Below are positions 11,133 through 51,489 of a stretch of 53,746 nucleotides of DNA, piece by piece. A program made the position numbers and the translations under genes. This stretch comes from Nemertoderma westbladi. Its lineage: Eukaryota > Animalia > Xenacoelomorpha. The stretch covers positions 1-53,746 of the forward strand of contig JAUCBJ010007871.1 of the NCBI GenBank assembly GCA_032718475.1, in the 5' to 3' direction. Positions within the stretch are counted from its first letter, which is position 1, and the number at the start of each line of letters is the position of its first letter. Under the pieces are notes generated by a model, which ran no database searches, was not told the DNA's origin, and saw nothing but the letters and a program-made list of their open reading frames with translations.

Positions 11133-11144
11133 TATAACTGTTAT
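11133..11144 (-). promoter_or_regulatory. Primer-binding-site position of copy 1 (non-tRNA, complementary to own LTR)
   Basis: Minus strand ATAACAGTTATA directly follows the LTR end; no TGG start; reverse complement of LTR 11816-11827. Confidence 0.75.
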
Positions 11145-22036: not shown

Positions 22037-23344
22037 ATGTCACAGGGTGCAGATTCAGTTATATTATGTGATGAAAAAACTATGATTAATCAGAATAGTC
22101 ATCGAAAGGGCTGGAGACTTTACATGCTGGTGGCCATGTTGCTGATGTATCAAATGATACCAGGTTGGTGTCAGAATCTACTGGAAACATTCTTTCCAAT
22201 TGTTGTAGAAGAGCGTGGTTGGTCGAAGACTCTGATTGGTGCATTATTGGCAATGTTTGCTATGGTCAGACTTATAATATACATTTGTTGCCCTCATTCT
22301 ATCAACAATTGGGGAACTCGTATCTCTTTGGGCCTATTTGGCATTATTGGTGCAGTCTCCCAATTGGCATTTGGGTTTGTAGAATATATTCCAAACAACA
22401 GCAATGGATTATATATATTCGCTTGTTTTTCTCTGCGCATAATTGAGGCAATTGGACTCAACATCAGTTTTATGTATTCATACAGTCTATTGATGGAATT
22501 GTGGCCTGCACAAAGAACTTTATTAGCCAGTTTATCAATTGTTTGTAGCACTGTGGGATTCACGGTTTCACCAGTTTTTGGCTCATCCATTTTCGCTTCA
22601 TTGGGTTTTGAGTTCCCATTTATAATATCGGGTTTGATGTTTCTAATTATCGTCATTTACTGCTGGATGGAGTCGCCACGTTATATTTACGACAGATCTG
22701 AATCGAAAGACAGACCAACTTATATTGGGCTTCTGAGGAATCCAGCTATTTCACTTATATTTATTTTAATTATATCTTCCAGAATACTCACATCCTTTAT
22801 CATTGCGAACTATGCTGCTTACATTCACCACAACTATAATGTCAACCAGTACAATATTGGACGTATCTATATGATATTTCCAGGACTTTATGCTACTACT
22901 AGTCTAATAATATCATTAATGATGAATAAATTGAAGACTATCTTACCAACTGTATTTGGTGCAGTGTTACTAACAGTGTCAATGCAACTAATAGGTCCCA
23001 CAGAGCTACTGGGTTTACCTCATTATCTCGCCATATCTATCACTGGATGTGCTCTCCTTGGATTTGGGTCTGGATTATTTCACACTCCTGCCCTGGAAAC
23101 ACAAACACAACTGGCTGTTAATGTTTGTGAGTATCGTGATAATGTTGATACAAGAACACTTCTCCAACAAATGTATAAAATTGCGCTCTCTATTGGAGGT
23201 ATTATAGGTCCTGTTCTTGGTGGATTCTTCAATGATTCCTTTGGTATGGAACTTGCTTGCTCGCTTCTCAGTTTGTTTGGGTTACCATTTATATTCGCTC
23301 TGGTTGCTGTGTTCGCATTTAGATGTCGGATCATTGAGATGTGA
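22037..23344 (+). CDS. MFS transporter, SLC18B1-like (435 aa, single coding exon), paralog A
   Basis: About 12 hydrophobic segments; FFPIVVEERG, LRIIEAIG, GFEFPF, LIGP and IGGIIGPVLGG motifs typical of SLC18B1-like MFS proteins. Confidence 0.85.
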   Translation: MSQGADSVILCDEKTMINQNSHRKGWRLYMLVAMLLMYQMIPGWCQNLLETFFPIVVEERGWSKTLIGALLAMFAMVRLIIYICCPHSINNWGTRISLGLFGIIGAVSQLAFGFVEYIPNNSNGLYIFACFSLRIIEAIGLNISFMYSYSLLMELWPAQRTLLASLSIVCSTVGFTVSPVFGSSIFASLGFEFPFIISGLMFLIIVIYCWMESPRYIYDRSESKDRPTYIGLLRNPAISLIFILIISSRILTSFIIANYAAYIHHNYNVNQYNIGRIYMIFPGLYATTSLIISLMMNKLKTILPTVFGAVLLTVSMQLIGPTELLGLPHYLAISITGCALLGFGSGLFHTPALETQTQLAVNVCEYRDNVDTRTLLQQMYKIALSIGGIIGPVLGGFFNDSFGMELACSLLSLFGLPFIFALVAVFAFRCRIIEM

Positions 23345-23772: not shown

Positions 23773-24942
23773 TGTTCGCGCTTTTAGACCTTTAGCAGTT
23801 TAACCTGCCAAATTTAGGTGTCTTCTAGGTTATAAATCGACTTTAGCCTATAACAAGTATTTGATACACATAAGTTACATTAGCCGAAGCCAGCCTATGC
23901 GCGATCATTCACCCACGGTTAAGGGAGACTGGATTCGGATGCTCTGACCTTATTGCGGTGTAGGCCTACTGTACTATTCGATTGATCGTTAATATATAAT
24001 CTCTGACAAATATTATTCACTTTCGGGAAATATTAACAGTTCCTTTAGGACGTGGCGCTCTAAGTATGTAAACAGAGTTATGACTTACACTAAACACAAC
24101 AGGATGGCTAATGATCTTCGTATAAAGCGCATTCTTTAGGAAATGCTTTGTTATCTGTCACACTCATGCACACTACCTCACACTGCTGCACACTGATCTG
24201 CCGACCTTCACTAAATTTGATCATATATAAGGAGAACAGCAAATGACACATGTAGGGTCTATGAAATAGCATTCAATTCACTCCAAAACCACTATAATGT
24301 AAGTCGCAATTGCTATATGTAACCGGTCTCTCTAACCTTGAGTATATCAAGAAGATTGGGGTTTTATGATTATTCCTCGATATTCTCCAAATATAACAAC
24401 ATATCAATCAACTTCTAACAATTAATAACCGACAGTAAATAGCAGTAAAATAATGCGGTGAAAGGTATGTATAGCATTTGAGTCTGACCAGTTCGATAAC
24501 AGTTATACGTTTCTATGATCAAAGCCGTTCTAATGTTTTGGCTAAAGTCTGAAACACAGAATAATTCCACAGCCGATGTTCTGGGCTCAGGAAAAAAGGT
24601 AAACAAAGACCATAATGCATTGCGCGATTTCCCGGAGGCTTCTGTGCAAATAAAATGAAAATCGCTCTGATTGGTCGAGCCGAACAAAGAACAAAGAAAA
24701 GCTATACGTGGACATATCAGCTGATAGATGTCGTCATCTGAACTACACTGTATCAAGAGTATTTTGGCGTATTGCGGCATAAAATCGCTAGTTATGTCCG
24801 CTAAAGTACACATACAGAAAAATGGCTTTTTATGTCCAATAAAACACCTACACAGTAAGAAAACGGCTTTTTATGTCCGTTAAAACACCTAAAGAGTACT
24901 TTGCGGGGAAAATGACTAGCTAGATCCGTAAAAGCTTTTACA
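23773..24942 (-). repeat. 3' LTR of BEL copy 2
   Basis: Same length as 37874-39043; about 16 substitutions by manual count. Confidence 0.97.
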
Positions 24943-24950: not shown

Positions 24951-25020
24951 AGAAAATGGGATTTAATTCTATAAAATATAAAAAATCACAGTTTCTAAAA
25001 TATAAAAATACTTTAAACAG

Positions 25021-26570
25021 TTAGTCTTTCTTGCGCGGACGGCGTTTACGCAGTTTTTTGAGGCTAGCAAGAGTCCTTTTCTCTTTGGGGGGAGCCACTT
25101 TACTAGGAGGGATATAACTCCTAGGTGAAGGGTACAATACAATTGCATCGGAAGGTTTAGGATTATGGTCGCTGTATCCGCCGGTCGAGGTACCTGGTTG
25201 ATCGATATCAACCTCAGTGGAGCGAGGTCGAACAACCTTGAGAGCGCATTTTAAGACAGCAGCTGTTATTGGTCCCTGACGGGTCGTTTGCACATAAGCG
25301 GTAGGTAGACCGTGTGTAGTGAGAAATTTCCTCGGTTAGATGGTTCTTTCCAACTCGCGTTCTCGGGCTCTATCGGAATCGATATGCTTCTCCTCGAGCT
25401 GATTTTCCTCCGCTTGTCGTTGGAAGCATTCGTTTAAAACTCTTTTAGAGAGTAGGGTCACTCAAGTTCGATATCTTCTTAGAGATTCTGGATTTCCTGA
25501 TCGAACTGAGATAAAGCTAATTCGTTTACTGCTTGGACTTGCTGCTGCAATTTACGTTTCTCTAAACAATTGTAGGTTCCCTTTCTGATCTTTTGACGAA
25601 TAGTGTCCAACGCGTTTCATACAACTCTCTCCTCCTCCTCGGTGACAGGTTGTATCGGGTTAAACCGGGACGATGATACGATTGAATGGCGATATTAGAT
25701 GTCCGCGTCCCAATCCGGCTAGGTGAGATGGGCGAATATCTAGGGAGCCCACAACCGGAGTGCCACCGACTAACTGTTCGGGTAACACTAGATCTTTGAA
25801 CAGTGAGTACAGTTCGGGAGGATCCGTGATACTATTAGGATCAAGAGTCTGAGGTCTCACTAGGAAGTGAGGAGGTCTGTCCGAGTATTCCGGAACTCTG
25901 ATCATAGGTTTATTTAAGGATCGTTTGAATCGAACGAGCGTAGGTGATACATTGAACAAGTTTCGCTCGAAACTCCCGTAAATATAGCGAGTAAAACCGT
26001 GTTTAAAGCAACGTCTCCGCGGATGTTTGTCTTTCCGTTTGTTGGTTGGGTCTTGGGCATTCATCGCAATAATACCAAAGACGCACGTCTTGTGGGGGAA
26101 ACGCGGGTGATATTTATTCGGTTTTACAATGTTTCTCTCAAGAATTCCAAATATACGTTGGAGTTATCGCGTTTATCCGGTTCTTTAACGTATTTTCTTT
26201 CGAGTCGATTTCGAATAGAATTTTCGCATTCGATTTTCAGTTTATCGTTCCGACTCCGCTGGGTAGGATATTTAAATAGTACCATTTCCCTTTCATTGTC
26301 GACATAGTCCGTATCGTGTAAATCGATAGGATGGCCAGTAGTTAAGAAGTCCATATACGTACCATTACGATGCGTATAGCGAGCGGTGAATTTTCTATAG
26401 TCCAATTCATGCGTGAGCTGTTCCTTTGACATTGGCGGTTCGATATAACGACCATCGTCCTCCGTAGTAGGTTGACTAGCGTCGCCGCTTATCAAACTAT
26501 CAACAAACGCTTGTAGTGGTAGGGTATATCGCTCCCTGATACCAAGATCATCTTCTATCAACTCAGTCAT
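25021..26570 (-). pseudogene. Decayed extra ORF in the env position of BEL copy 2 (roughly 500 aa if repaired), unknown function
   Basis: Same-strand ORF pieces 26570-26124, 26064-25660 and 25293-25021 in a GC-richer block between AT-rich UTR and PPT; ends in a basic tail KKLRKRRPRKKD. Confidence 0.6.
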
Positions 26571-28275
26571 AGCTGCTATATGAGTTTATCAATATTATAA
26601 TAAGTTTATGATTAGGCTAGCGGGTGTCGCTGCCTACCCCTCACGGCCCCCGGACAGCGCAAGATCCTCAGCGCCGATGTACTTTTGCCGATGTGCCTAT
26701 CGCCAACATAGTAGCTGCACAACAACCACAACAACCAGCGCGAGTCACTCCACTGTCCGTCCCAAGGGCTAAGATTTACTTCAGGTTATTACTGCAGAGT
26801 TAGGGCTACTTTCACAATTGCGACTCGCTACTGTAACACACTTTAGTAGTAACATTCACCTATAAACGCACAAATTCCACACAACTGTCACAAACCGCAC
26901 ACATTCGGGCCATTTGTCCGTTAGTCAAGTGCCTTCCAGAATGCCACGTTATTATTGGGTATCCTTGGATACTAGCAGTGTGCTATTTATTCCTTATGCT
27001 ATTCAATGGGGCAAGCTTTATTGTTCTTTTAACTCACTTCTAATTCTAGCGTGGTTGTTGCCATGGTGACATTATGGAAAGCTAGCAGTAGAATTAGGGT
27101 AATTCTCATGCATACAGATCTGGGATGCTATTTAATAGTAATTCTTTAATTGTCAATATTCCTCTTTATACATGATTTTATGAATTTTATCGGCTATTGA
27201 CTATATATTGGAGATTCTCGCACACTAATATACTTAATAGGGTGAATCTCCGCTCCCATGATCTATTAATTAATGGAATTTTGGGAATGTTATAAATTGT
27301 ATAAAAATGACAATTTATCAAATTCATTAAAAGAGATGAATTTAAATTTATTCCCATAAATTTTATTATTTAATATTAAAATAGACACAATTTTATTCCA
27401 GAACATGTCTGGGGACTGGGATCCTTGATTCTAGGAAATTTGTCTTTTTAAGAGTATCGGTAAGTGCTACGATATCTTAATAGACTAGAATTTTAAAGGA
27501 TCTAAAATTTTACAGATTTTAATTTATAGATTTTCTAGAGTTAACTTGTAAGTAGTTACTCTATTGTATTTATTTGACAGATTTTACAAATATTAATAGT
27601 TAATATTTAAGATGGGCACCGGTTTATTCCAGAACATGTCTGCGGACGTTAACCACTGATTCTAGAATTTTGTCTTTCAAGTATATCGGTGGGTGCCGCG
27701 ATATCTTAATCGACTAGAATTACAGATGGTCAAAGGGTTTAACAGATTTATTTTGCATTTTACGCTACTGTTAAAGGGACATCACGCTACTATATGTATT
27801 ATTTAATATACGGTATGAGAGCAATATCGCAAGAAGCAATGTCAGTGAGAAGAGGCAAGTCGTTTCCAAGGTCTACCCAGAGCTTGGTTTAGCCGAGACA
27901 CGAGGATCTGAATTTTGCATTCCTAATACTCTACTTACCAATAATACTTGAATATAGTAGGAGCTTTATTGTACTTTAATAAGTACGGATATTTCATCTT
28001 ACTGTAGTCACGTATTTATAATATGATACGGACAGTAAGGAAAGAGAAAAAGAATTATTTCTCGCCGTCGCACTAAATATATAATATATAAGTAATTAAG
28101 TAATAAACACTAATATATATTGCACTAATCTACTAGATAATCGCTAAAATAACATTCTACTAAATAAAATTAAAGAAAGCGAATATAATAAAATTACATA
28201 ACGATACATACCTAAATATAAAAATAAAAAAGACAGATATAAAATAATATAGTCACACACCCACTCCAGACGCTG

Positions 28276-31200
28276 TCACGTTGGGGAGTCCCTAGATGTT
28301 TGTTGGATTAGGGAGGTGGTCGTGGGAAGAGTTTCTTGCCTTCCATAGTTTCCGGAGAGTTCTCTGTCTCTTTCCAGTAAACATAAACGACCAACTGGGC
28401 GATTGAGCTGCTGTGTCTCGAAGACAATTCCCGGTTTCTTAAAGTTACGTCGCATGACGACGAGTTCTACCGATCGCACCAAACCATCATCCGAGATATG
28501 AGTCTCGATGATACGACCTGTCTGCCACCGCTTACGTGGAAGATCTAAGTCCACAATAAGGACCATGTCTCCGGCGCTGACGTTTTCTTGCTGCGCGAAC
28601 CACTTAGTTCGAAGTTGTAGCGTAGGCAGATAATGTTTTTCGAAATGGTCAGCGAAACGACGGGATAACAACTGCATAAGTTGCCAAGTTTGCCGGCAGT
28701 ATTCGTCTCCGTCCGTGATTTCCGATCGTGGGAGCATGGCTACAGGTTTCTTCAGTAGGAAGTGCGCGGGTGTTAGCGCTTCCAGGGAATCGGGACTCGA
28801 TGAGACTGGCATAAGCGGTCTCTCATTGAGATAGGCGGCGATTTCCTCCATTAACGTCCGCAAAAGTTCGTCGGTGAGATACGCGCGGCACGGCACTATA
28901 AAGTGAAATGCGGTCTTCACGCTCCTGATTAATCTCTCCCAACTTCCTCCCCACCAAGGGGCGTCGGCGGCGTTGAAGGTCCAGCTAGACGCTGTTACCC
29001 ATAGCTGATCGTCCACCTGTCTTTGGTTCCAATCTTTGACGTAAGCCTTGATTTCATTGTTGGCACCAATGAAGTTCGTTCCCTTATCAGATCTCATCGT
29101 GTTACTAGTTCCAAAGCGAGCGATCTGTCGGCGTAAGCTCAATATGAAGCTATTGGTAGATAAATCGTTCACCATATCGAGATGGATAGCTCTACAAGTC
29201 ATACAGACAAAGATGACACACCATCTCTTGACTATAGTCCTAGCACGATATACTTCAATAGGGCCAAATAAATCCACCCCGGTATTAGTAAAGGGTGGTT
29301 CATAGAAGCTTACTCGTTCCCTAGGTAATTCTGCCTCTCGCTGTGTTAAAGGCCTACTGAATGCTTTCCTACAGGGTATGTAGTTCCTAAGAACTTGGTT
29401 CAGAGCTCTACGGGGTTTATGAAAATAATAGCGAGTTCGAATTTCGCTAAGAACTCGTTCTCTACCAGCATGATAAAGCTTACTGTGAACATCTACAATC
29501 ATCTTGATTTGTATTTCAAGATTTCTAATGAGTATGGGAAACTTAGTGTCAAAGGATAATGGAGCATTAGTTAGTCTCCCTCCAACACGTATTAACCCAT
29601 CTATCATTGTGCTAGAGAAACGATCCCTTAAGCGCATCTGTGGATTTCTCAACAACAGGAAATACTTATCGGAATCCTCATAGCATTACAGGAGTCTCAG
29701 TATCTGCTTATTGGTTTCTTCATGCTCCTGGTAACTGATCTTCTCCTTCAGAAACCTGTCGGATATCTTGTATTTGGGAAGATCTTTAACAACATGGACC
29801 TGCGCAGATGTCAGTGGAGCGGTATCACTAGTGGTCTTCGTCCTGGAGTAGTGATGATGAAAACATCGCTTTAAATATGTAACGGCCTTACAGAGCCGAT
29901 TCCAGGAACTATAGTGATGTATCGCTCTCTGCAGGAGAGGTGAGAGTCCTTGCGAGACGTCTGGTATTCCAGATTTCCAATCTCTCTCTCTGATTTCCAC
30001 AACAGACTTATTTGTGGCTGTGGGTTTCGGATCCAAAGCGTCGTCTCCGGAAGTGTGTAGTACAGACAGATCTACCACGGGTTTAAATAACTTCGATTTA
30101 CTCGCCCGAGTTTTAGGTTTGACTTTCTCCGCTCCCTTGGCCTGTCTAATCTCCGCCATAGTAAGATGAGGAGGCCATTCATCCTCTTCTTTGCTTAGGA
30201 AGTCGGGTCCACCTAACCAGTCTGGAGTATCTATCAGTTCTTGTGGAGTTGCTCCCCTGGAGGCGATGTCGGCTGGATTAATCGTTCCGGGGCAATGTCT
30301 CCATTGATCTATCTTCGTGCGACTAAGTATAATGGCTACTCTGTTGGTAACGAAGACGCTGAACTGACAGACTTCATTGGTTATATACTCCAACACGAGT
30401 AAAGCATCGGTCCAATAGACAGTTTTCTCCAGTGGATAGACGATCTGTTCTGTTACATTCCGGCCGATGGCTGTAGCGTATAGAACCGCTTTTAACTCCG
30501 CTCGAGGAACTTTCAACTTATTATTTATCAAGGCCTTAGAGGTAACCAAGGCAACCTTGATTCCATCCGGAGTTTCAACTCTCAGGTAGGCTACTATACC
30601 TATTCCCATATCGCTGGCGTCTCCAAACACATGGAGTTGATAGGAATACGTAGGGAGAACATGACCAAAATATGAACGGGAAATTATAAAGTTCTCGATG
30701 GACGGTAGAGAATCTTCCCATTTCATCCACTTCTTTAATAGTTCTCCCTTAAGTGGATCGTCCCATGAGTGGTTTTCAAGCCACATGTTGTACTAAACTC
30801 CGAGCAATCAATATAACTGGGCTAATAAATCCCAATGGATCGAAATAAGTGCTCAGGATACTTAAACAAATCCGTTTAGTCCGAACTGGATTATCTCGCT
30901 GTTTTAGCTGGAAAAACAGGATATCTCTCTCCATGTCCCATTTCAAACCAAGCGTCTTGGTTTCTGGAAGATCGTCCTTGATTAGATCTAGATCTTTAAC
31001 TCCTCGGTCTTCTACCGGGATCGATTCCAGAAACTCACGGGAGTTGCTGGTGAATTTAGTTAATCGAAATCCACCTCTTTTCAAGCACTCTACCATTCCT
31101 TTGGCGACATCAATGGCTTCTTCCACCGATGGGAGGGACTTTAAATTGTCGTCCATGTATATATCCCGTTTGATGTTGTCAATAACCTCTTTGGAGAAGG

Positions 31201-34200
31201 CGTCCCGGTTGTCATCAGCAGTGGTACGAACTACTGAGCAGGTGTTTGAAGGGCTCGAGATGATCCCAAAAGCCTGGATGGTCATCCAGTACTCCACCGG
31301 TTTCTGGTTGAAGTCTCCTTCAGGCCACCACAGAAATCGTAGGCTGTCTCGATCTCTATCTAGCGCCTTAACTTGTAAGAACATGCCTTCTATATCGGAG
31401 GCGAAAGCGATCGAATATTGTCGTAATCTTAAGAGTATTCCCAACAAGGATTGTAGTAAGTTGGGTCCTGGCAACAACTCGGAGTTAAGGGATTGGCCCA
31501 TGTAGAGGGCGGAGCCGTCAAATACTACCCGGACTTCGTTGGGTTTACCGGGTTTGGGAACGTAATGGTGTGTTAAATAGTACGTTCTCTCAGTTATGGG
31601 TGTTCCTTCCGGTACTCGCTCCGCATATCCCTTGTCAATGAATTTCTTCAGCTGGGTCTTGTACATCTCCTTAGCTGAAGCATTTGCCGTAAGGCGTCGA
31701 TGTAGTTGCGCAATTCTCTTCTCCGCCAAGGGTCGGTTGTTGATAAAATTGGGTTCTCGCCGTCGGAAGGGCAGACCAATCTCATATCTACCTTGATCTT
31801 TAAGAAAACGTGTAGTCGTTTCTTGTATCTGCTTGGCTCTTTCTTCTTCTACTGATAGGGCCTTATCGTAGGAATTGGGCTCTACAGCCTCTTGAGTAAA
31901 GAATCGTACGGCGTGTTCATCCTGAGTCATCGCGTTGTAGCGATCTATCACTTCATTCAGTTCGTCGTTATAGTCGACTTGTCCTGCTGGATGAATGAGG
32001 TGACATAGGTTCACTTAGTTTTGCCAAGTTTCGTTTTCCGTAAGGAGGTCGATGGTATTCTCCTCGTCGAAGAGTTGGTGGATATCGTCATTATCTGAGG
32101 AGTATGGTGTTCCCTCAGTTGTGTCGTCTACCTCACTGATCTCCTCTTCCCATTCACTTACCTGGTAGACCCGTTCTTTGGGTAACCTTTCCATGAGAGT
32201 TCTACGGGAAGGGCCAGTAAAGTACCAACCTACTCTAGTTCTTCCCGTATAGGTTTGTAGTGGTTGCGGTTGAGCAGGCCGTTTCTCCAATGTCTCAAGC
32301 GCCTCATGCGCATTTTGGCCGATGAGTATTTGCACTCCAGGGTAGTCTGTATTGAATCTAGGTATCTTATGCTGCTGGGTTAAATCGTCCTCATCCCAGT
32401 TATAAGGTTCCACTTGGCTGGTAGCGAGTTCTTTATCGCCACCATTTTTACTGACCTTATGCTGTGTTCTCCTAGTTCATCCTGGGGGGTGGACAACGCG
32501 CCTACATAGTAATCTGTAGTTACTGTAGATTTCCAAACCTGCATAATTCCTGACATGTTCATTGTTCAACTTAGTTCGGAATTTGGGTTGTCCAGCAAAG
32601 ATGTCTTCAGCTAGTTCTTTGTCAATGAATGTTCCTGTGCTGCCAGAGTCAAGGAGGGCGTTCACTATATAGCTCTTGTCTGACCCGTGGACTCTCAACT
32701 GCACTACGGGAAATTCTCGGATTCCTACGTTGGAAGTTGGTGCTTTCCAAGATGGTGGTCGGTCAGGAGTAGTTAGGGGGAGCTCATTGTCGGTTTCCTT
32801 CTCATACGTAAGTGCTCGATACACTGCGGTATTTATTAGATAACAGGATTCATCTTCGTCGGAGAATTCGTCCGTATAGAATCCTTCCATCTCAGAACTT
32901 TGGTCAGTGTCGTTCACATCACTGAATTGGACATGTAGTTCGGACTCACTTACCTGACTCGGGCTGTTTCTTTCGAATTCAGTGTGCAACAAGATATAAT
33001 GTTTCGCACCGCACTTTGCACACCTTGCGTCGGAGTAACAGGTTCGCCGTTGGTGTCCTTGTCTGAGGCAATTATAACACAACCGCTTATCCCACATGAC
33101 TTCACGTCTATCTTTTAGTGACTTCTTTAAAAATTCATCACACGCACTTAAACGGTGGGGCCCGTCACACAGCGCACATTTCGGTTTGATGTTACTTACC
33201 TTACTTTAGGTAACGTTGTGCACACTCGTTCTTTCCTCGGGCTTTCTTCCGTGAATTCTCTTAGGAGACGTAGGAGGAGCTTTTCTTACCTGTTTTCTCC
33301 TGTCATTGGTTCGAGACTTAAATTTACTTACCTCTTTAGACGCTTTGTTGACATAGTAAGATCTTTCAGTGTCTTTCCCGCTGTCCTCCTCTTGAGAGGC
33401 CTGGCTTTCGCCGTCGTCTGTATAACACACTGGTGTTACCTTTCTCCTAGAAACGGGTTTCTCACTTACCTTATTTTCCGGTGTCTTCTCTCTGGACTGC
33501 TTTAGGAGCTGTAATTTTACTTCTCCATCTAAGAATGACATGAGATCAGCCATGGTAGGGTCTCGTCGTTGTTGTTCCATCATATATAACACTTTCTTAT
33601 CCCAGCGTGTACCTACTCCACCCTTTGGTAAAGTAGATGCTACGGCTCCAATAACCATAGAACTCTGATATTCATGAGACTTACCTAGCCAATCTAATTG
33701 TCTACAGATCTCCTGAATCTCATCGGAAAACTCTATAATCCCGCTGCTAATGAACTTTCGGGGCGCTACCAATTTTGTATACAAATACCTAGCTATGTTA
33801 TTCCTATTACCATACCTGATGTTTAGTGTATCCCAAACTTGTCTTAATCCATCTGGATGTCCAATAAACTTTAACGCCATTAACTTGGGAGATCCTTCCA
33901 AGCACTCGATGAGGAATCTAAGTTTCTCTCCGTTAGATAGCACAGAGTTCTGTATGTTATCTTTATAATATTCATTAAAAGGTAACCATTTCATCTCATC
34001 TCCATTGAACTTGACGATCTCTCCCACCTTTACCGCTTGACGGGCTTCGGTTCTAGCCATTTGACGCGTAAAGCTTTCTTGGGCCATCGTGTTATTTAAT
34101 ATCGAGTTATCGGTATATAAATTTCTCGGATTATGATCAGGTCTATATGGAATATCATTGTCAACAGGTTTATAATTACCCTTAATAGGGTTTACTATAG

Positions 34201-36228
34201 GAGTTTCTACTTCACTAGCAGTATAGATGCGTGTAGGCTCCACACCTTGCGCATGAAATACTTCAGACCTAACAGGTTGACACATTGTTACCGGGGTTGG
34301 TGGTATACCCCTTTGGGTATTTACTAATTTATTGCATTCTAACGCGATACTCTGCTGCACTTCTTGCAACTCTAACCTACTTTCCCTTACTGTGCCCTTG
34401 AACTGTTGAACAGTCTCCTGCATCTGCCCGAGCAGGAGATCCATCCCCCGCCGTCTCTCATCCACCCACTCGACCGCCGAAGCGGGAGCCGCCAACATAG
34501 TAGCGGGTGGACGAGGGACAACGGGCGACAAATCATTGATATTTCGCTCGGAGTCCAGGACAGGAACTGTCTCAGGGGCTGTTCTGCTGGGCACAGGTAG
34601 TTTAGTGCTGTGCAAAGAGAATTTAGAGGTAGGTTCTGGGAGTACAGGTGTCTCTATCACCGAAGGGGTGGCTTCGAGAACAGGCCTAATTATTTCAGGT
34701 TCATCTACTATAGTAGGGAGTCTTTCTACTCTAATAATTTGGTCTGTGGGTTCTGTACTACCTAAGTCTGTGCTAGCTAGTTGCCTTCTCACAGCTGGGG
34801 GCAAATCAGGCAATTTCTGACGGTGGGGCATTCTTCTACGCCTCGACGCTACGCTACGTCTAGACGAGATCTATTTCCTCCGCCTTCAGGATCTGTTGTA
34901 TTGCCTTCATCCGATGATGTAAAGCCCTGTCGCTTGGGGGTGGATCGACTTATCAGCTGCATCTGACTAGCTGTTATCTGTTTATTAAAGTTGTCTTGCT
35001 TCTCTTGAAGATTTTCCAACTCTAGTTGGGCTGTCTCTTCAGATGCCCTCCGTTCTGCTTCTGCCACTGCCGCTGCCGCTTTTCTTTCCGCTTCGGCCGC
35101 TTTTCTTTCCGCTTCTGCCGCTGCCATTGTCGCTTTCCTTTCCACTTCGGCCGCTTTTCTTTCCGCTTCTGCCGCTGCCATTGCCGCTTTTCTTTCAACT
35201 TCTGCAGCTGCCGCTGCTGCCGCCTTTTGGTCTTCTATACGTTTTTTCTTTACTTGTTCTTCTTGAACCTTAGCGATGCGGATGCTTTCATCAAGTTTAG
35301 CTTGGTTCACAGCTAGCATTTCCGCATCTATTGCGTCCAGCACAAACTTGGCTCCTTCACTACTAGGACGAAGTTCAGCCAGCCTTCTCCTCAACTCTTC
35401 GTCACCTAGAAATCGTTGATAGTCTGACAGATAGATGTCAATAGCGTCCTTCTTCTGCGGTTTCTCTGCTGTCGCTTCGCTTTCCACTTGAGAAAAGGTA
35501 GCGTCTGTTGATTCTCCGTGGGTTGAGCGCTCAGCCAGCTGAAATTTCCACTGGGCCGTTCCTTGAACCGTGAGACCCACCCGCTGGAACCAAGTCTTTA
35601 CGGCAACTTGCAATGACGTGTCTTGTCTTCTTTTCGAAGCTTCCTCAAAGGCCGATAGGATTAGTCTGATTCTTAGAATTCTTTCTAGAACTTGATAAAG
35701 CAGCTCTCCCTGCTCTTGAGGTCCTTGGGGTTGTCGAAACAGTTGTTCCTCTAATCGCTCCAAAGAGCTGAAGAATCCCTGTACATATCCTGCTGCCGAC
35801 CTCTTCCACACAGCTGGATCACTAGTATCCTTTGTCACTCCCATCCTGTATAAGTCCTCCCAGGCAGCTTCCGATAAGTTAAACGGGAGTCCGGGTCCGG
35901 GGAAGTTCCATTGCGACTCGACAATAGACTTCAGTTCCTCCCTTGTGTATCCCGCATAACTGTCCTTGATCGATCGCTTACTTCTCGCCCAATCGATTTG
36001 GTGTTCCTCCACCAAAATCAATACCCTAGTGAGTACAGCTGCAGGAAGAATGAGAAGGGGATCCGAATAAATCGCATCTGCCATCTTTGCTCCGCGCTCG
36101 GGAGTCAGCTCTACAGTATCCGAACTACTGAAGCTATCGGGCCGCTGAGAAATAAGTTCTCGGCTAGGGTGTTGCTGCTGTTTAACAGCTGCTTCTTGGT
36201 CCCGCTTGACTTGAGCCCGAGTCCCTAT
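28276..36228 (-). pseudogene. Disrupted Gag-Pol of BEL copy 2
   Basis: Fragments colinear with the 2703-aa ORF (RT YMDD, RNase H, integrase); about seven stops or frameshifts; start codon and ~480 bp lost by deletion near 36228. Confidence 0.95.
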
Positions 36229-37854
36229 AATTTATAGAAATAAATATAATAAGCCTATCGTAAATACCGGTACGTCAATTATTTTAGAATAATTGAATTT
36301 CTGAATTTTTAGGGTTACTTAGTTACTTTACTTTACTTTATTACCGTTATTTAAGCAGTAGTCCAACTGATATTAAGACCTAATTGTTGTATGACAGGCC
36401 TACTATTTTATAAATCGGTTTGAGTTGATTTATAATATATATATATACCCGTTTAATGGGTTTTTGTCAATGTTTGAAATAAATGTTATTATTTCTGGTA
36501 AGGAGTCACTACACAGAAGCTAGGCGCTCTCAGTGGAGTGCTACCTATTGTTTTGGACACTAAAACAAATAATTCTACTTGCCTAAGTTACTTATTACTA
36601 CAAATTATGTACAATTGCGGGGTGAGATTACAATCTCTAAATAAACACAAAAATTACACGTACGAATTTTTTAGGGTTAATTTTACAAGGAATCTACAAA
36701 CCAGCCTAACAAGGAGTTAAAATTTCTGGTTATTACAAACGAACAGGATACTTCGGTATTTGAAAATAATAAAGCAGTAGTAAATATATTGCGTTGTCTA
36801 GATAGGAAAAATACAACCATCTGACGACTTATAGCCGTAGCGCTATAAGTACTACGTTATGTACCCGGAGTGTTCCTACCTAGAAGTTAATTACCGCAGC
36901 CTACTATAGCTAACGTGCCTATTAACCACTTTACAACACAAATATACTGCCTACACACTAATTACTTTCGGAAAGCACTGTACACTAAACCCTAAATTAG
37001 GTACAAGTACTTATACAACAAATAACCAGCAGTTAAAAATACTTGTACAGCCAAAAGAACCACGGTATCTGCCGGAGTGACTAGAGCATAAAATCACCAG
37101 TCTTTACCTACGCCAAACAGCCCTGATGTAGTACCGGGGTTAATTTAACTATAACGGTATATATAACAAGCACAATTACTGTAGGAATAAACTTGGGGTT
37201 GTGAATGTTGCGAATAATAGCATAAACTCTGAATAATAAATATTACGCTACCCGTACAGACTACACAAACAAAATACAGACCAAACGCTGGCAGACTACT
37301 ATCAAGCGTAAATAAACTACAGTATATGCAGACTCCGAAATGGGTAGTTAGTATGCGTTCTAACTGAGTAGTACGACTTATTCTTTCGGGGGGGATTTAC
37401 CTTACAGCACTGGATGCCCCCACGTTCCTAACTAGTACTTTATCGGACATACACTCTACACATACTGCAATCTCTTCAGACTTAACAACAGCCAGACAAC
37501 AATCCAGCCTACAAATTATTTATACAATCTGAGCAGGCTTACATGCCTTCTGCTCAATATTAACTTACAGATAAATAAAACTGACAGAAATAAGTAAAAT
37601 CCCAATAAAAAACCAGGGCTGCAGTCCCTGATTAAATATCAAGACCTACCGGTATATAATTATCAAAATCGAATAATACTGATGTACCTGTACTGCTGTA
37701 AGTACCGGTTCGGGTTGTTAGGCAGTCAGGCCTACTGGTTACCGGTCGACCGGTACTTTTGCCTTTATTGCCTACTTTGCAATAAAGAAAGCAATAACTG
37801 TTATTGTTCTTACCAGAACAATAGACAACTATATTTATTGCCTACACTGCAATC

Positions 37855-37873
37855 AGAAACGTATAACTGTTAT
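37855..37873 (-). promoter_or_regulatory. Primer-binding-site position of copy 2 (19-nt complement of own LTR)
   Basis: Plus strand AGAAACGTATAACTGTTAT abuts the LTR and is the exact reverse complement of ATAACAGTTATACGTTTCT at 38597-38615. Confidence 0.8.
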
Positions 37874-39043
37874 TGTTCGCGCTTTTAGACCTTTAGCAGT
37901 TTAACCTGCCAAATTTAGGTGTCTTCTAGGTTATAAATCGACTTTAGCCTATAACAAGTATTTGATACACATAAGTTACATTAGCCGAAGCCAGCCTATG
38001 CGCGATCATTCACCCACGGTTAAGGGAGACTGGATTCGGATGCTCTGACCTTATTGCGGTGTAGGCCTACTGTACTATTCGATTGATCGTTAATATATAA
38101 TCTCTGACAAATATTATTCACTTTCAGGAAATATTAACAGTTCCTTTAGGACATGGCGCTCTAAGTATGTAAACAGAGTTATGACTTACACTAAACACAA
38201 CGGGATAGCTAATGATCTTCGTATAAAGCGCATTCTTTAGGAAATGCTTTGTTATCTGTCATACTCATGCACACTACCTCACACTGCTGCACACAGATCT
38301 GCCGACCTTCACTAAATTTGATCATATATAAGGAGAACAGCAACTGACACATGTAGGGTCTATGAAATAGCATTCAATTCACTCCAAAACCACTATAATG
38401 TAAGTCGCAATTGCTATATATAACCGGTCTCTCTAACCTTCAGTATATCAAGAAGATTGGGGTTTTATGATTATTCCTCGATATTCTCCAAATATAACAA
38501 CATATCAATCAACTTCTAACAATTAATAACCGACAGTAAATAGCAGTAAAATAATGCGGTTCAAGGTATGTATAGCATTTGAGTCTGACCAGTTCGATAA
38601 CAGTTATACGTTTCTATGATCAAAGCCGTTCTAATGTTTTGGCTAAAGTCTGAAACACAGAATAATTCCACAGCCGATGTTCTGGGCTCAGGAAGAAAGG
38701 TAAACAAAGACCATAATGCATTGCGCGATTTCCCGGAGGCTTCTGTGCAAATAAAATGAAAATCGCTCTGATTGGTCGAGCCGAACAAAGAACAAAGAAA
38801 AGCTATACGTGGACATATCAGCTGATAGATGTCGTCATCTGAACTACACTGTATCAAGAGTATTTTGGCGTATTGCGGCATAAAATCGCTAGTTATGTCC
38901 GCTAAAGTACATATACAGAAAAATGGCTTTTTATGTCCACTAAAACACCTACACAGTAAGAAAATGGCTTTTTATGTCCGTTAAAACACCTAAAGAGTAC
39001 TTTGCGGGGAAAATGACTAGCTAGATCCGCAAAAGCTTTTACA
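37874..39043 (-). repeat. 5' LTR of BEL copy 2
   Basis: Direct repeat of 23773-24942, followed by TSD CCACC. Confidence 0.97.
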
Positions 39044-39057
39044 CCACCTGGACGTCA

Positions 39058-39688
39058 TTGCCGACACTGCAAAGCTGTGCCCAACAAAAGGAAAAGATGG
39101 AACTGACTTAAACTGACTTAAATAGATGGAACTGAGGCTAAATATTTGATAGGACTATGTATGATAAGTGTGACGGGATCAAGGGATCCCGACCGGGTTG
39201 AGTTCTCACGCGTCACAGCAGGCTGATGGGTGGATGTGGTAAAATGTAAAAGGGGTTTGAGTTCGGTGTTCAACTGATAGTATAATATAAACTAATGATA
39301 GCACTGAGTAAACTGAGTTAACCGGTAGACATTGATAATATATGCATAGCAGCACCGCAATGACGGCAGAACTATGTTGCCGACACTGCAAAGCTGTGCC
39401 CAACAAAAGGAAAAGCCCAAGCATTTAAATAGATGGAACTGAGGCTAAATATTTGATAGGACTGTGTATGATAAGTGTGACGGGATCAAGGGATCCCGAC
39501 TGGGTTGAGTTCTCACGCGTCATAGCAGGCTGATGGGTGGATGTGGTAAAATGTAAAAGGGGTTTGAGTTCGGTGTTCAACTGATAGTATAATATAAACT
39601 AATGATAGCACTGAGTAAACTGAGTTAACCGGTAGACATTGATAATATATGCATAGCAGCACTGCAATGATGGCAGAACTATGTTGCC
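39058..39688. repeat. ~310-bp tandem duplication spanning flank plus left end of the solo LTR
   Basis: TTGCCGACACTGCAAAG...GCAGAACTATG occurs twice; TTGCCG microhomology at the junctions. Confidence 0.9.
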
Positions 39689-41125: not shown

Positions 41126-41930
41126 CTGAGACCTTTTAAACATTGTTCGCCATAAGATCCAGCTTGTGTACATGCATAATTGCGCTTTGGCAGGCCCATG
41201 GAGAAAATAAGAATGGGGACAGCCTTTCTTTCTTGAGATACCTCATAAAGGACATAGGCCTTAAAGATGTGGATAATCTCGCGAAAGTCATAGGGGATAG
41301 ACTAATTAATAAACTATCTCGAGGTTAGAGTTAATTATCACCTTATGTCATGTGATGTTTTTACAGAGATTTCGAAAGAAATTGCTTCCCATTTCGTTAT
41401 TTAGATTACTCCTTTCGTTGAGGGTTCAATTTGGAATTCCTTTGTCATTTCTGAATGCTGAGTTTTATATCTTAATTGGATGTTGGCTTTGCCAGCAGAG
41501 CGGTGAGATGAAATCACTGTCATGGCAATAATCTACACCTATAAAAGTATAAATCTATCTGTCCCTCAGCTCGAACCACTCCTAAACGGGTAGAGGGATT
41601 GCACTTGGATATTAATATTCATACACTTAATATTTCGTCTTTTCTTTCCGTGCTGTAGCATAGATCGATTTTGAGTACGATTTGAGCCCCTTATGCACTT
41701 TGTATTTGCATTTGCATAAACGTCTACTATCTACTACTATCTATGAATAGTAGTTGTTTTTGTGTTTGACCCTTTTTCTTCATTGCAACTAGCAGTTGGG
41801 ACTTGAAATTTGTGGTGCATCATATTTTTTATGGAGGATTTAGTTATGTTAAGTTTGGAAATGTGGAGTCAGACAGTGGAGTGATGGACTTTAAGCCCCA
41901 TATATACTACATTTGAAGTTGGTCTACAAG

Positions 41931-43238
41931 ATGTCAGAAGGAGCAGCTTCTGTTATATCAAATGATGAAACAAATAAAATTATTAGTAACCAGAATGGAC
42001 ATCAAAAGGGAAGGCGATTTTATATGTTGGTAGCCATGTTGCTAATGTATCAAATGATACCAGGTTGGTGTCAGAATCTATTAGAATCTTTCTTTCCAAT
42101 TGTTGTAGAAGAACGTGGTTGGTCGAAGACTCTGATTGGCGCATTATTGGCAATGTTTTCTACTGTCAGACTTATAATATACATTAGTTGCCCTCATTCT
42201 ATCAACAATTGGGGAACTCGTATCTCTTTGGGCCTATTCGGTATTATTGGGGCTGTTTCCCAATTGGCGTTTGGGTTTGTTGAATATATACCCAACAACA
42301 ACAATGGGTTATTTATATTTGCATGTTTTTCTCTGCGCATTATTGAAGCAGTTGGACTCAACATCAGTTTTATGTATTCATACAGTCTATTGATGGAATT
42401 GTGGCCAACACAAAGAGCAATATTAGCTAGTCTAGCTGTTGTTTGTGGAACTATGGGATCATTGGTTGCACCAGTTTTTGGTTCAACCATTTTTGCTTCA
42501 TTGGGTTTTATGTTCCCATTTATATTATCGGGTTTGATATTTCTTATTATTAACATTTATTGCTGGTTGGAGTCGCCACCTTATATATATCACAGATACA
42601 AATCAAAAGACAGACCGACCTATCTTGGGCTTTTGAAGAATCCAGCAATTACAATTATATTTATTCTGATGGTATGTGCCAGAATAATATCATCCTTTAG
42701 TGTTGCAAACTATGCTGCCTACATTCACCACCAATACAATGTCAACCAGTACAATGTTGGTTTGATTTATATAATATTTCCAGGTCTCGCAACTTCTACT
42801 GGTGTAATAATGTCTGCAATGATGCCAAAATTGAAACATATATTAGGCTTACCAACCATAATCGGTGCAATGCTACAGGCAGTGTCAATGCAACTAATAG
42901 GCCCTACTGAGTTACTAGGTTTACCTCATGATCTCAACATCTCTATCACTGGATGTGCTCTCCTTGGATTAGGTTGTGGATTATTTCAATCTCCTGCACT
43001 TGAAACACAAACACAAATGGCTGTAAATGTTTGTGGTTATCATGATAATGTTGATACCAGATCACTTCTCCAACAAATGTATAGAATTGCATTCTCCATT
43101 GGAGCTATCATAGGTCCCATTATTGGTGGATTCTTCAATGATTACTTTGGAATGGAGCTTGCTTGCTCACTTCTCAGTTTGTTTGAGTTGCCTTTTATCT
43201 TTGCACTACTGGTTGTATTCGCCTTTAAATATTTGTGA
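41931..43238 (+). CDS. MFS transporter, SLC18B1-like (435 aa, single coding exon), paralog B
   Basis: Clear paralog of 22037-23344; ATG at 41931 (MSEGA...) matches MSQGA... of paralog A, so the TTG start at 41913 in the ORF track is not used here. Confidence 0.85.
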   Translation: MSEGAASVISNDETNKIISNQNGHQKGRRFYMLVAMLLMYQMIPGWCQNLLESFFPIVVEERGWSKTLIGALLAMFSTVRLIIYISCPHSINNWGTRISLGLFGIIGAVSQLAFGFVEYIPNNNNGLFIFACFSLRIIEAVGLNISFMYSYSLLMELWPTQRAILASLAVVCGTMGSLVAPVFGSTIFASLGFMFPFILSGLIFLIINIYCWLESPPYIYHRYKSKDRPTYLGLLKNPAITIIFILMVCARIISSFSVANYAAYIHHQYNVNQYNVGLIYIIFPGLATSTGVIMSAMMPKLKHILGLPTIIGAMLQAVSMQLIGPTELLGLPHDLNISITGCALLGLGCGLFQSPALETQTQMAVNVCGYHDNVDTRSLLQQMYRIAFSIGAIIGPIIGGFFNDYFGMELACSLLSLFELPFIFALLVVFAFKYL

Positions 43239-47288: not shown

Positions 47289-47344
47289 CGCCAAGGGTAG
47301 TATGTAGAAAATATCTTTTTCAGGTAACCAAAAAGAGTTTAATC

Positions 47345-47401
47345 GCCAAATATTTAAACCACGTATAATACAATATTATACGTCAGGCCTTCATCAGTGG
47401 C
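47345..47401 (-). ncRNA. Minimal type I hammerhead ribozyme motif (GAAA mutated to TAAA)
   Basis: GCCA-CTGATGA-AGGCC-long hairpin-GGTT-TAAA-TATT-TGGC. Confidence 0.6.
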
Positions 47402-47572
47402 TAAGACGGCAATGCTACAACTAAAGAACTACCGGCACCAACAGCACTACTATTACTAAAGACTACAGCACAATATAAAAACACAAATTGTAATACTGAC
47501 CTAATTAACTGGGGCACGGTACCGGTAGAGGCCTACACTTGAAAGGTAGTAGTACACTAGTATACTAGTAAT

Positions 47573-49315
47573 CATAACTACTTTGGTGAACGAGTTGGAA
47601 CAGGGGTGCACCACGGAGCAGCGGTGGTTCGCGGATGACGGGAACGCAGCGGGGAGTCTAACCGAACTCAGAAAGTTCTTCGACATCATCGCAGCGCGGG
47701 GGCCGCATTATGGGTATTACTCCACCAAGTACTGCCTCATGGTGAAGTCGGACAGGTTACTGGAGGCGGAGGAGTTGTTCGCCGGCACCAACATTGCAAT
47801 TAATATCGTTGGAAGTAAACTTCTCGGTGGCATCATTGGCACTGAGGAGTTCCGTCGGCAGTTCCTCTTAGAGAAGGTCGCAGAGTTCGCAGCCGAGGTC
47901 GATCGGCTAGCAGATATAGCCACGGTGGATCCCCACTGCACCTACGCGGGACTAGCGTTTGGGCTGGCCTGCCGGTGGCGGTACATAGCGCGGGTCGTAC
48001 CGGGGGCGACGGAGCAGTTTGGGAAGCTTGAGGAGTCTGTAGGGCGGTTTCTCTGTCGCCTCACCGACCGGGCAGTTATTCTGACAGAGGAGCGAGAGTT
48101 GTTGTCGCTGCCAGTTCGCGACGGGGGGCTGAATGTCCCGGTCCCTCGGGATCTCGAGTCTCAATACCAGAACTCCCGCCGAGTCTGCGAACCGTTCGTA
48201 GGGGCCACCGCAGATACGATGTCGGAAGTTCGGGAAGAGCAGATCGACATCATAAAGACGCTCAAAATAGTGACAGCAGCTGCAAACAAAGAAAAGAAGG
48301 AAGAAGTGTGCAGTAAGCTGCCACAGAATCAACAGTAACTGTGTGATCTAGTGGGAGAGAAAGGAGCTTCAGCCTGGCTAAACTGTAAACCTATGACCTT
48401 ACAGGATACTCACCTCGACAAGGACGGGTTCCGTGATTCCCTGTGCCTCCGCTACGGGTGGACGCCGCGAAATTTACCGTCTCGTTGTGCCTGTGGGGTG
48501 CGATTTACTTCGTCCCACGTGCTGTCGTGCCCCACCGGAGGGTTCCCCTCCATACGGCACAACGAGATTCGCGATTTCGTCGCCGATACCCTGACGGAAG
48601 TGGCACACAATGTCGGGGTGGAACCACTTCTGCAGCCACTATCGGGTGAGACGTTCAGCCATCAGTCGACATCGACGGACCAGCAGGTGAGGCTGGATGT
48701 GTCGGTGAGCGGATTCTGGGGAAACCGTTTCCGGAAAACGTTCATCGACGTGTCTGTCTTCAACCCGCTGGCGGACACCAATGCCGCGATGTCCCTTCCG
48801 GCATCCCACCTACACCATGAGTCTCGCAAGAGGCTCAAATACGAAGAGCGGTTGAGGGAGGTGGAGCACGCCAGCTTCACTCCCCTTATATTCTCTGCGT
48901 TTGGTGTAGCTTCACCGTCAGCCACACAGTTTATCAAGCGTCTCGCGTTGAAACTGGCTGACAAACGCGAGGTCCGCTATTCAGAGTGTGTTGTGTGGGT
49001 TCGCAGGAGGTTGAGTTTCGCCCTTTTGCGGTCAGCCCTCCTGTGCCTTCGCGGCTGTCGATCAGCTAAGCGGCGTCCGGTTCGGTGCGACGTGGAGTCG
49101 ATCATCCACAGCAATGCCGACTGCAACCCGGCGTAGGCGACTGTGGATATCAACCCTCCAAGTTTGGAGGACAGTCAGACAGTATCATATACTAACTGTA
49201 GTATTAATTTAACAGTGTATATTTGTCTGGTTGTTGGTGGTGGTTGCTATGCGATCTGATGTGCATCAGCTGTTTTTACAAGCTTTAATAATAAATATAC
49301 GTCTATAAAAAAAAA
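47573..49315 (+). mobile_element. 5'-truncated CRE-clade (RLE) non-LTR retrotransposon nested in the Penelope element
   Basis: GC-rich block; AATAAA at 49290 and a poly(A) tail; 14-bp TSD AGTATACTAGTAAT at 47559-47572 and 49316-49329. Confidence 0.88.
47583..49136 (+). pseudogene. RT C-terminal half, Zn knuckle and restriction-like endonuclease of the CRE-like element; one in-frame stop at 48336-48338
   Basis: WFADD, LPVRDGGL, CACG...HVLSC, RHNEIRD, RLDVSV...FIDVSV...KRLKY; the two ORF pieces are in the same frame. Confidence 0.88.
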
Positions 49316-49498
49316 AGTATACTAGTAATACAGTAATACTAGTACACTAGTAATACACAGTATAATTACAGTATATAAACGGGAGTGGGGGGGGGGGGGG
49401 GGGGGGTTTGTGGAGTGGGGGTTATGTGAGACAACTTCCAAAACGCTTACCAACCAGTGTTGTGTGTGGGTATGTATTGTGTGTTTAGTGTGGGGTGC

Positions 49499-49804
49499 TC
49501 ATGCGTAGTGTTTTTCGCTTATTTTACGATCCGCCCAATCTTTGCATTTACGCTTAATTAGTATTTTGAAGGGTTGTGGGTGATTGGCATGTCCAGGGTG
49601 TTTATCCAGGAAGTGTTGGCCGATGGCTTCTTTACGGTTTCCACCGCGTACAGAGTTACAATGTCTGTTGATACGTTCCCGTATGGGTCCTACTGTCTCG
49701 CCTATGTAGTTGGTGACGCGACTAATACATAGGTTGCAAACGATCTCGTACACCACATTCCTCACCATACAGTCTTTCGGACCGTTATTACACGTATAAC
49801 ACAT
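49499..49804 (-). pseudogene. Penelope-type GIY-YIG endonuclease fragment
   Basis: CYTC...NVVYEIVCNLC...YIGET...RERINRH...IGQHF..KH...RKISE: GIY-YIG with the CCHH residues typical of PLEs. Confidence 0.88.
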
Positions 49805-50222
49805 GGTATTGCGTGGGGTGGGGCATGGGTCTCCAGTTAGGCTAGCCCGAACTAACAGTTGTTTAAGTTTGGGGCCCGGTTTACTGACTAGCCGTATGTT
49901 GGTGTGTAAGGGGGAAGCGTTAACGATTTGCTGGGCGTGTCTATGCAGGTGTTGGTTAACGAACGGTTTAACTAGAGGAACAGGGGCTCCGGTGGGGGCA
50001 GCATTACTATTGTTGTTATGTTGGGTGGGCGTGTTATGTGTGGTTCATAAAGTACTACACAGTGTAACCACACATAACACGCCCACGCAACATAACAACA
50101 ATAGTAATGCAGCCCCCACCGGAGCCCCTGTTCTTCTAGTTATACCGTTCGTTAAGCAAACACCTGAATAATAGTGGTGCTGTTGGTGCCGGCAGTTCTT
50201 TAGTTGTAGCATTGCCGTGTTA

Positions 50223-50279
50223 GCCTCTGATGAAGGCCTGAAGTATAATATTGTATTATACGTGGTTGAAATATTTGGC
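50223..50279 (+). ncRNA. Minimal type I hammerhead ribozyme motif, core intact
   Basis: CTGATGA (50227-50233), extended stem II, GAAA (50268-50271), palindromic ATAT stem III, AUU triplet, stem I GCC/GGC. Confidence 0.75.
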
Positions 50280-51489
50280 GATTAAACTCTTTTTGGTTAC
50301 CTGAAAAAGATATTTTCTACATACTACCCTTGGCGTTATGTTTCCACTGGTAATCAGGGCAAGATCATTCCTTATTAATTGCCCACTCTGTCCCTTCCTT
50401 CCCATTTATACAAAGACTGAATTACCACCCCCCCCCCCCCCATATTATTTGCTCGCCCCCTTTCAAGCCTTCCAAACTGCTCAACCATGGTTGGTCCCCA
50501 TGCAGCTCAACCCAGTGCCACCTCTATCACCATTCCCAACTCGTCCCCTGCTCATGTCTTTGTTCAGCGCAACTTTCATGGATGTTCCGTCGTACCCACT
50601 ACAATTGCGCCACACCATCCACCAATTCAAACCCTTCATTGCCCCAAAATTCGCTCTGGAGCATGTGGTCCCATTCCTACTCCAAGTTCCCACATCAATG
50701 CTCAATGCTGTACAATTCAATCCCAATGGTATCCTCTCCCACAGGGAACACATGGCATTCCACGACATCCATAAACGATTTTCTTAATTCTGATAGGACT
50801 GACCATTGTATATATTTGTATCTCATTTATCGAGATCTCATGCCCGGTTTGTCAATAAAATACTACTACTACAGGGGGCTACTGTACTAGAACCAAATAT
50901 GGTGTAGGATATTGTACATATTAACTATGAAACGAAATAAACTCTTATTTATTACCGTAGTATATAAAATCGCACGTCAGTTTAGCAAATGGAATTCATG
51001 ATAAAAACTATTAAAACTAAATTATAATTGATATACAAAATATCAACAGACAGACAAACATTCCGACAGATGGACAGAACAAAAACTTTTAGGAGTTTAG
51101 TCCCCGAATAGCCCGATGGTAGATGTAACAGCAGTTCACATGACTGATGAATCTAATTTAAAAACAAATTATAATTATTACTTTGTCAAACATAACTTTC
51201 TTTCTTGAACTGTTATTTTGTAGGGATATTTTGTTCAAGTAACTATTATTTCGTCCAAGGACTGTTATAACTCGGATAACGCGGGTCGATCAACATTTTT
51301 AATGAAACTCCTGTCTAAATTGAATAACTTGATTATATTTTAAATTGCACAGATATTTACTTATAAATATTGCCAGCAACCGAACCCACCAAGATTGCAT
51401 GTTTCTTCAATCGTTATTATTTACTCTACTCTATAGCACAATGAACACATCACCAACCAGACACTACAGTATATAACATTGGAGGTGTC

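Follow-up and report, generated by a model that had tools for sequence, protein, structure and literature searches.

How can an LTR retrotransposon start minus-strand DNA synthesis when the primer-binding site (PBS) after its 5′ LTR bears no mark of a tRNA? The question is raised by the window (the whole stretch of DNA analysed here, 53,746 nt), the minus strand of which carries two copies, E1 and E2, of one LTR retrotransposon family. A sequence-only reading had assigned the family to BEL/Pao and proposed that it primes itself with a segment of its own LTR. The parts of the two elements are as follows.

37874–39043 (−): E2 5′ LTR, 1170 nt, TGT...ACA
23773–24942 (−): E2 3′ LTR, 1170 nt; the candidate self-primer motif is also here, at 24514–24496
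39044–39048, other side 23772–23768 (−): E2 target-site duplication GGTGG, 5 nt
28276–36231 (−): E2 gag-pol, disrupted, with seven open stretches of at least 150 aa
24943–24950 (−): E2 polypurine tract GGGAGCGG, adjoining the 3′ LTR
11145–12252 (−): E1 5′ LTR, 1108 nt, sharing 74% identity with the LTR of E2 over E2 positions
874–8991 (−): E1 gag-pol, an intact frame of 2705 aa

E2 is complete, spanning 15.3 kb, and is a young element, with 16 differences in 1170 nt (1.4%) between its 5′ and 3′ LTRs. Its LTR end at 37874 is set by two facts: the 3′ LTR copy diverges straight after ...GAACA, and GGTGG is duplicated on the two sides. The 3′ LTR of E1 lies beyond the limits of the window. The E1 polyprotein contains, in order, what we take to be three Cys-His knuckles, a protease, a reverse transcriptase (RT; YIDD), an RNase H (four acidic motifs) and an integrase (DDE motifs). 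Pfam matches in the E1/E2 polyprotein comprise Peptidase_A17 (Pao; 7.8e-35), DUF1759, DUF5641 and Integrase_H2C2 (the integrase zinc domain), and the BEL/Pao assignment is borne out by these domains. The PR-RT-RH-IN domain order, the TG...CA LTR ends, the target duplication and the polypurine tract likewise agree with BEL/Pao; the Pol is not that of a Tf1/sushi-type Ty3/gypsy chromovirus, as BEL/Pao domains are found instead and Pfam gives no chromodomain match. The top protein homologues carry the same BEL-type domains at about 37–43% identity, and those with names (about 40%) come from echinoderms, molluscs, amphioxus, a hemichordate, a coral and fishes. Protein searches returned no relative of E1/E2 above 45% identity, and the viral contigs searched contained no relatives.

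ICTV describes the Belpaoviridae as host-tRNA-primed, with an 18-nt PBS complementary to the 3′ end of tRNA-Arg or tRNA-Gly, LTRs of 0.2–1.2 kb and genomes of 4.2–10 kb; their replication is poorly understood and the family is defined by Pol (PMC8742986). E1 and E2 share with this description a Gag with Cys-His knuckles, PR-RT-RH-IN in one frame, LTRs within the stated range and a polypurine tract. The differences are the length of E2 and its lack of a tRNA PBS, a site of that type being present in only 2 of 17 readable relatives (below). E1 and E2 thus read as BEL/Pao elements in which the tRNA-PBS feature described by ICTV is absent.

Other features of these elements and of the window are recorded here. 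The E1 Gag (approximately 6200–8991, −) has an unusually long N-terminal extension of about 790 aa ahead of DUF1759, with an Ala/Glu-rich repeat, and the 2705 aa of the E1 polyprotein compare with mostly 1500–2200 aa among the homologues listed. E2 contains, within 24951–27257 (−), a second GGGAGCGG polypurine tract (27257–27250), separated from the tract adjoining the LTR by extra sequence of about 2.3 kb. This extra sequence holds a broken reading frame (26570–26124, 26163–25660 and further pieces), the last piece of which ends with the basic KKLRKRRPRKKD; the frame gave no Pfam match and no usable atlas match, and the segment may be a captured or accessory gene. On either side of E2 lies one of two single-frame paralogues that share about 84% identity (22004–23344 and 41895–43238, +), the first with an MFS transporter domain. 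At 47289–50335, 167-nt inverted repeats 2.7 kb apart, with a 94-nt inner hairpin, are possibly a DNA transposon or foldback element.

The question of priming turns on four short sites, two in each element.

37855–37873 (−): E2 PBS 1, immediately following the LTR; complementary to the motif over 19 nt; TGG absent
38597–38615 (−): E2 candidate self-primer motif, LTR-internal (LTR positions 429–447); its 12 nt at 38608–38597 have a pairing counterpart in E1
11133–11144 (−): E1 PBS, directly after the LTR
11816–11827 (−): E1 LTR motif, 12-nt complement of the E1 PBS

In neither E1 nor E2 is there a TGG in the first 9 nt after the LTR, and the claim that no CCA-tRNA site follows the 5′ LTR of E2 (37873–37855) therefore stands. 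The claimed perfect 19-nt complementarity between 37873–37855 and 38615–38597 was confirmed, as was its exact register: the 3′ end of the motif lies opposite the first base after the LTR, with zero spacer, and does so in both E1 and E2. In E2 it is the longest perfect inverted pair among all pairs of at least 9 nt in 39045–37570. The matches expected by chance in the LTR, given base composition, number 2e-8 for the 19 nt of E2 and 3e-4 for the 12 nt of E1, and the observed lengths were attained in 0 of 500 LTR shuffles and 0 of 1000 PBS shuffles.

Between E1 and E2 the 12-nt core is invariant, with no compensatory change, and the 7-bp extension is not in E1. The 15-nt identical run at the motif is just one of 19 runs of at least 11 nt shared by the two LTRs. 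(The longest such run, 54 nt, is at 38110–38163 (−), LTR positions 881–934.) An 11-nt core is near-palindromic, so that the LTR motif is also a 10/11 direct copy of the PBS; at the central base of this core, both E1 and E2 have the complementary rather than the identical base. The match is contiguous in both elements, and no splice junction with a consensus donor was found in either LTR. Two candidates were rejected along the way: an intron whose acceptor would be the TAG immediately preceding the E2 motif, which has no consensus donor upstream, and a 7-nt match between the post-PBS bases and the CCAAT box region, which has no GT after it and is missing from E1.

In having a PBS that can pair with a segment of the LTR, over 19 nt in E2 and 12 nt in E1, aligned exactly with the LTR border, the two elements show the arrangement of Tf1. 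In Tf1, bases 1–11 anneal to the PBS, and the RNase H cleaves between base 11 and base 12 (PMC7175516); Tf2 transcripts that start downstream are without the self-primer (PMC5341516), self-priming has been proposed for Tj1 of S. japonicus (PMC4600332), and it has been predicted for Tcn1 and for the copia TAR lineage, with Houba and Osr-1 (PMC6317226). E1 and E2 resemble Tf1 and Tf2 (Schizosaccharomyces pombe), Tj1, Tf1/sushi and the Tcn1 chromoviruses in having no tRNA site, a segment of about 11–12 nt in the LTR that is complementary to the PBS with its 3′ end at the LTR border, and a predicted intact RNase H. They differ from Tf1/sushi, a Ty3/gypsy group, in belonging to the BEL/Pao superfamily, in the roughly 700 nt between motif and PBS, in that the primer is only a candidate for the extreme 5′ end of the RNA, and in having relatives that assemble the match across an intron. 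The family is thus Tf1-like by sequence signature, yet not a member of Tf1/sushi.

The 19-nt duplex described in the sequence-only reading does not extend to the family as a whole. Three contigs with a single-copy leader, among 15 joints listed of 26, agree with the PBS over its first 12, 12 and 9 bases and diverge beyond them. Because E1 has 12 nt and these contigs keep 12, 12 and 9, the common duplex is about 12 bp rather than 19, which is Tf1-sized, and the 19 bp of E2 accompany a rearranged leader. The retrotransposon family is large and varied, since 13,296, 8,360 and 4,450 contigs from public DNA runs align to 37300–39200 at 80% likeness (runs X1 and X2 are one sample). The rearranged E2 leader contains the following parts.

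37815–37833 (−): inverted imperfect copy of the LTR–PBS junction, predicted to fold onto and hide the second PBS
37794–37804 (−): second PBS core, 11 nt, within a duplication of 69-nt period
37763–37787 (−): hairpin of 9 bp just after the PBS; the same stem is in E1 (11130–11108), with a different loop

Over 37873–37763 (−), the PBS and hairpin are duplicated at the 69-nt period, with the inverted junction copy in between. This copy is predicted to mask the second E2 PBS and to leave the first free. Contigs from runs X1–X3 cover the leader spacer, so the duplicated leader is probably a subfamily trait and not peculiar to the E2 copy. The first and second PBS of E2 differ at positions 12–14, all three changes being toward the LTR complement; speculatively, they look templated from the primer.

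More distant elements offer a wider comparison. Relatives were fetched with an alignment of 35 RT–RNase H sequences, yielding 80 metagenome and 18 MAG loci that are about 40% identical to E1/E2 in this region. (Loci L081–L098 are BEL/Pao elements within bacterial MAG contigs, most likely host-animal DNA binned into bacterial MAGs.) A flanking direct repeat was present in 40 of the 98 loci, from which 17 with a fixable 5′ LTR end were picked by hand; at least three pairs among them are sister families. TGG is absent in 15 of these 17, and the other two (L030 and L048) have a tRNA-type TGG site. In 13 of the 17 the PBS matches the element's own LTR over 10–15 nt, beginning 0–4 nt after the LTR, and each match was equalled by at most 2 of 1000 PBS shuffles; the permitted offset was widened from 0–3 to 0–4 nt after L025 and L035 had been seen, and the shuffles used the same range. 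When PBSs were paired with LTRs of other families as a control, a match of 10 nt was found in 1 of 370 pairs and one of 9 nt in 4. The PBS sequence varies from family to family, and each suits its own LTR.

Three of these relatives (L035, L059 and L065), with short LTRs of 177–327 nt, have a contiguous self-match of 10–11 nt. The remaining ten (L003, L006, L015, L025, L042, L044, L063, L073, L082 and L083) match over 10–15 nt only across a junction, formed by removal of a predicted LTR intron. These introns are GT-AG, 67–451 nt long, with a consensus-like donor and a pyrimidine-rich acceptor. E1 and E2 differ from such elements in matching contiguously, with no intron. Covariation of PBS and LTR segment is not seen between E1 and E2, where the core is invariant, but is present among the relatives: the sister loci L082 and L083, for example, have matched changes, an exon-1 end of CAC going with a PBS of GTG, and TAA with TTA. 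Outside the 13, L039 passes only under a looser acceptor rule and L084 with one mismatch by eye. An open-ended junction scan, run with no control, gave plausible junctions in L004, L019, L021, L034, L050, L061, L062, L074, L080 and L086 and a junction with a weak donor in L053; it also gave spurious-looking matches, and none of its results entered the 13.

Because part of the primer precedes the donor, junction-type transcripts would start upstream of the LTR intron. The persistence of the intron in the LTR would be simplest to explain if only the 5′ copy were spliced and the spliced part not inherited, because the intron would be gone from a 3′ copy that had been spliced. What is established comprises the complementarity, its register, the conserved core and the fact that relatives match in a family-specific way. 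For E1 and E2 the relatives are evidence by analogy, because the searches gave none above 45% identity and because E1, on a long branch, falls outside the main clade of self-matching elements.

This placement comes from a tree of 41 rows covering RT to integrase (IQ-TREE quick, LG+G4, no outgroup). A clade of 31 rows (SH-aLRT 99) holds most of the junction-type loci, the three contiguous loci and ten named animal proteins; outside it are the junction-type L063, the tRNA-type group and E1. The E1 branch is 1.57 long, and its position beside the tRNA-type group has a support of 51. Grouping E1 with the contiguous L059 in one clade was rejected (p-AU 0.002), as was a single clade of L035, L059 and L065 (p-AU 6e-6), and contiguous primers therefore occur at several places in the tree. 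The separate placing of L035, L059 and L065 fits repeated intron loss. An independent origin of self-priming in this one BEL lineage, as had been suggested, was not upheld: the signature spans a wide clade, mostly in splice-junction form, and E1 is placed with support of 51. Repeated origin of self-priming as such has a precedent, because it is predicted in the copia TAR lineage; that lineage resembles the present case in that self-priming was predicted from sequence outside the gypsy group, and differs in being plant Ty1/copia, its self-priming likewise being a prediction (PMC6317226).

Self-priming is probably widespread in marine BEL/Pao elements. A fuller scenario, to which we give somewhat less than an even chance, is that a large marine BEL/Pao clade normally primes itself independently of tRNA, mostly with a primer built by host splicing of a 5′ LTR intron, while the unspliced 3′ LTR passes the intron on; contiguous primers would have arisen several times, and the primer of the E1/E2 family would lie about 700 nt from its landing site.

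For E1 and E2 themselves, we consider self-priming from an RNA motif derived from their own LTR to be the best reading of the PBS, and a probable one; its standing as the likeliest reading in the earlier account is strengthened by the own-LTR matches in the 13 relatives. The start site, the RNase H cut and the priming, like the splicing in relatives, are steps that we infer. The transcript would start at or shortly before the motif, which, being near the 5′ end, would fold onto the PBS about 700 nt away to form the shared duplex of about 12 bp. Cleavage at the 3′ end of the motif would follow, likely by the RNase H of the element, the catalytic motifs of which are present in E1, and RT would extend the motif into U5 and R, so that minus-strand DNA would be made with no tRNA. 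Strong-stop DNA would extend over no more than the region downstream of the motif; the motif itself would be regained from the 3′ LTR once strand transfer had taken place. On this view the E1/E2 family would carry, without an intron, the signature that most of the sampled relatives appear to assemble across a splice junction.

Where the transcript starts matters to this mechanism. In run X4, which may be RNA and bears another organism label (share 0.09), there were only short contigs and none over 38580–38707, a gap that weighs neither way. There are three candidate positions: the motif itself, where the sequence-only reading had placed the start at 38608–38615, and two sites that we take, from their letters, to be initiator-like and TATA-like.

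38643–38656 (−): 14-nt run identical in E1 and E2 with initiator-like TTCAGA; candidate start at 38654, about 40 nt upstream of the motif
38325–38330 (−): TATA-like TATATA, kept in E1; a possible alternative promoter that would place the motif in U3

The predicted pairing of the E2 core is 0.98 from a start at 38615 or 38654, 0.009 from 38608 and 0.37 from the LTR start; for E1 it is 0.80–0.84 from the motif start and 0.0 from the initiator-like site or the LTR start. The pairing spans about 700 nt. The predicted fold would allow a start within or close to the motif but is not robust, because it depends on the start assumed. Predicted net binding of the E1 12-mer is −3.8 kcal/mol, and the core is AU-rich. 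A second helix, between 38656–38643 and the U5 end, was rejected: it ranked only 5th and 3rd among about 350–370 sequence windows and competes with a local hairpin. As to the other end of the transcript, 12 of 16 LTRs have a poly(A) hexamer downstream of the motif, and none of the 16, E1 and E2 among them, has AATAAA or ATTAAA 10–45 nt upstream of the motif end, which fits a motif upstream of the transcript 3′ end. The sole hexamer of E1 is 34 nt from the LTR end, a position that would give a long R and a short U5; the E2 LTR has neither hexamer anywhere.

Each of four other readings explains part of these observations. The motif might lie in U3, with a promoter near 38330, and be present only at the RNA 3′ end; the pairing would then serve 5′–3′ circularization or a dimer contact, or the primer would act in trans from the 3′ LTR copy or a second RNA. 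The TATATA at 38330 and a CCAAT at 38460 are both kept in E1, the E1 fold from the initiator-like site fails, and the motif of E2 is 723 nt from the LTR end, compared with 44–203 nt in the 13 matching relatives. A second CCAAT (38775), however, is upstream of the motif in both copies, and priming requires the exact register with the first post-LTR base whereas circularization does not. As the LTR intron of junction-type relatives would persist most simply with splicing of the 5′ copy, we regard a U3 location as unlikely. That the transcript 3′ end itself primes, with the motif as polyadenylation site, would provide a free 3′ end without cleavage; the absence of hexamers just upstream of the motif in the 16 LTRs and the position of the only one in E1 make this very improbable indeed.

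Priming by a host RNA, such as an internal tRNA fragment or another small RNA, with the LTR motif incidental or regulatory, would accord with the tRNA priming that ICTV gives for Belpaoviridae (PMC8742986) and with the half-tRNA priming of some copia lineages (PMC6317226); no tRNA gene lies within the 53,746-nt window. It would, however, leave an exact own-LTR match of 12–19 nt to chance (3e-4 to 2e-8), and each relative family would need a different host RNA that also matched its own LTR, so that we hold it to be quite unlikely. The remaining reading takes both sites to be a near-palindromic protein-binding or dimerization motif with no priming role, the extra 7 bp of E2 having arisen by a local template switch in the rearranged leader. 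It draws on the near-identity of the 11-nt core on both strands, on the duplication and inverted junction copy in the E2 leader and on the extension being missing from E1. But it leaves the element without a primer, the central base is complementary and not identical in both copies, the motif–PBS duplex is predicted to be stronger (−15.1 kcal/mol) than the self-dimers (−8.5 and −7.0), and relatives with non-palindromic sequences have the same arrangement; we consider it highly improbable.

Searches of the literature, which did not extend to most subscription journals, Repbase entries or supplements, listed no published case of BEL/Pao self-priming. The main texts of the BEL/Pao surveys PMC554778, PMC3118150 and PMC6238403 do not refer to a PBS, primer binding, tRNA or priming, and the accessible portions of PMC3601003, PMC6934838, PMC3286476 and PMC13524379 contain nothing on BEL priming. 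Only Tf1 has been proven to prime itself; its gypsy relatives are implicated, and for one copia lineage the mechanism is a prediction. The mechanism is thus known from other superfamilies, and its more striking, splice-built form is a feature of the relatives of E1 and E2; if true, a primer built at a splice junction would be a new link of splicing to reverse transcription. A self-primed BEL/Pao clade would establish the mechanism in a third LTR superfamily and would explain why tRNA-based annotation has missed these primer sites. Such elements may also be independent of the tRNA supply and escape silencing by tRNA 3′ fragments.
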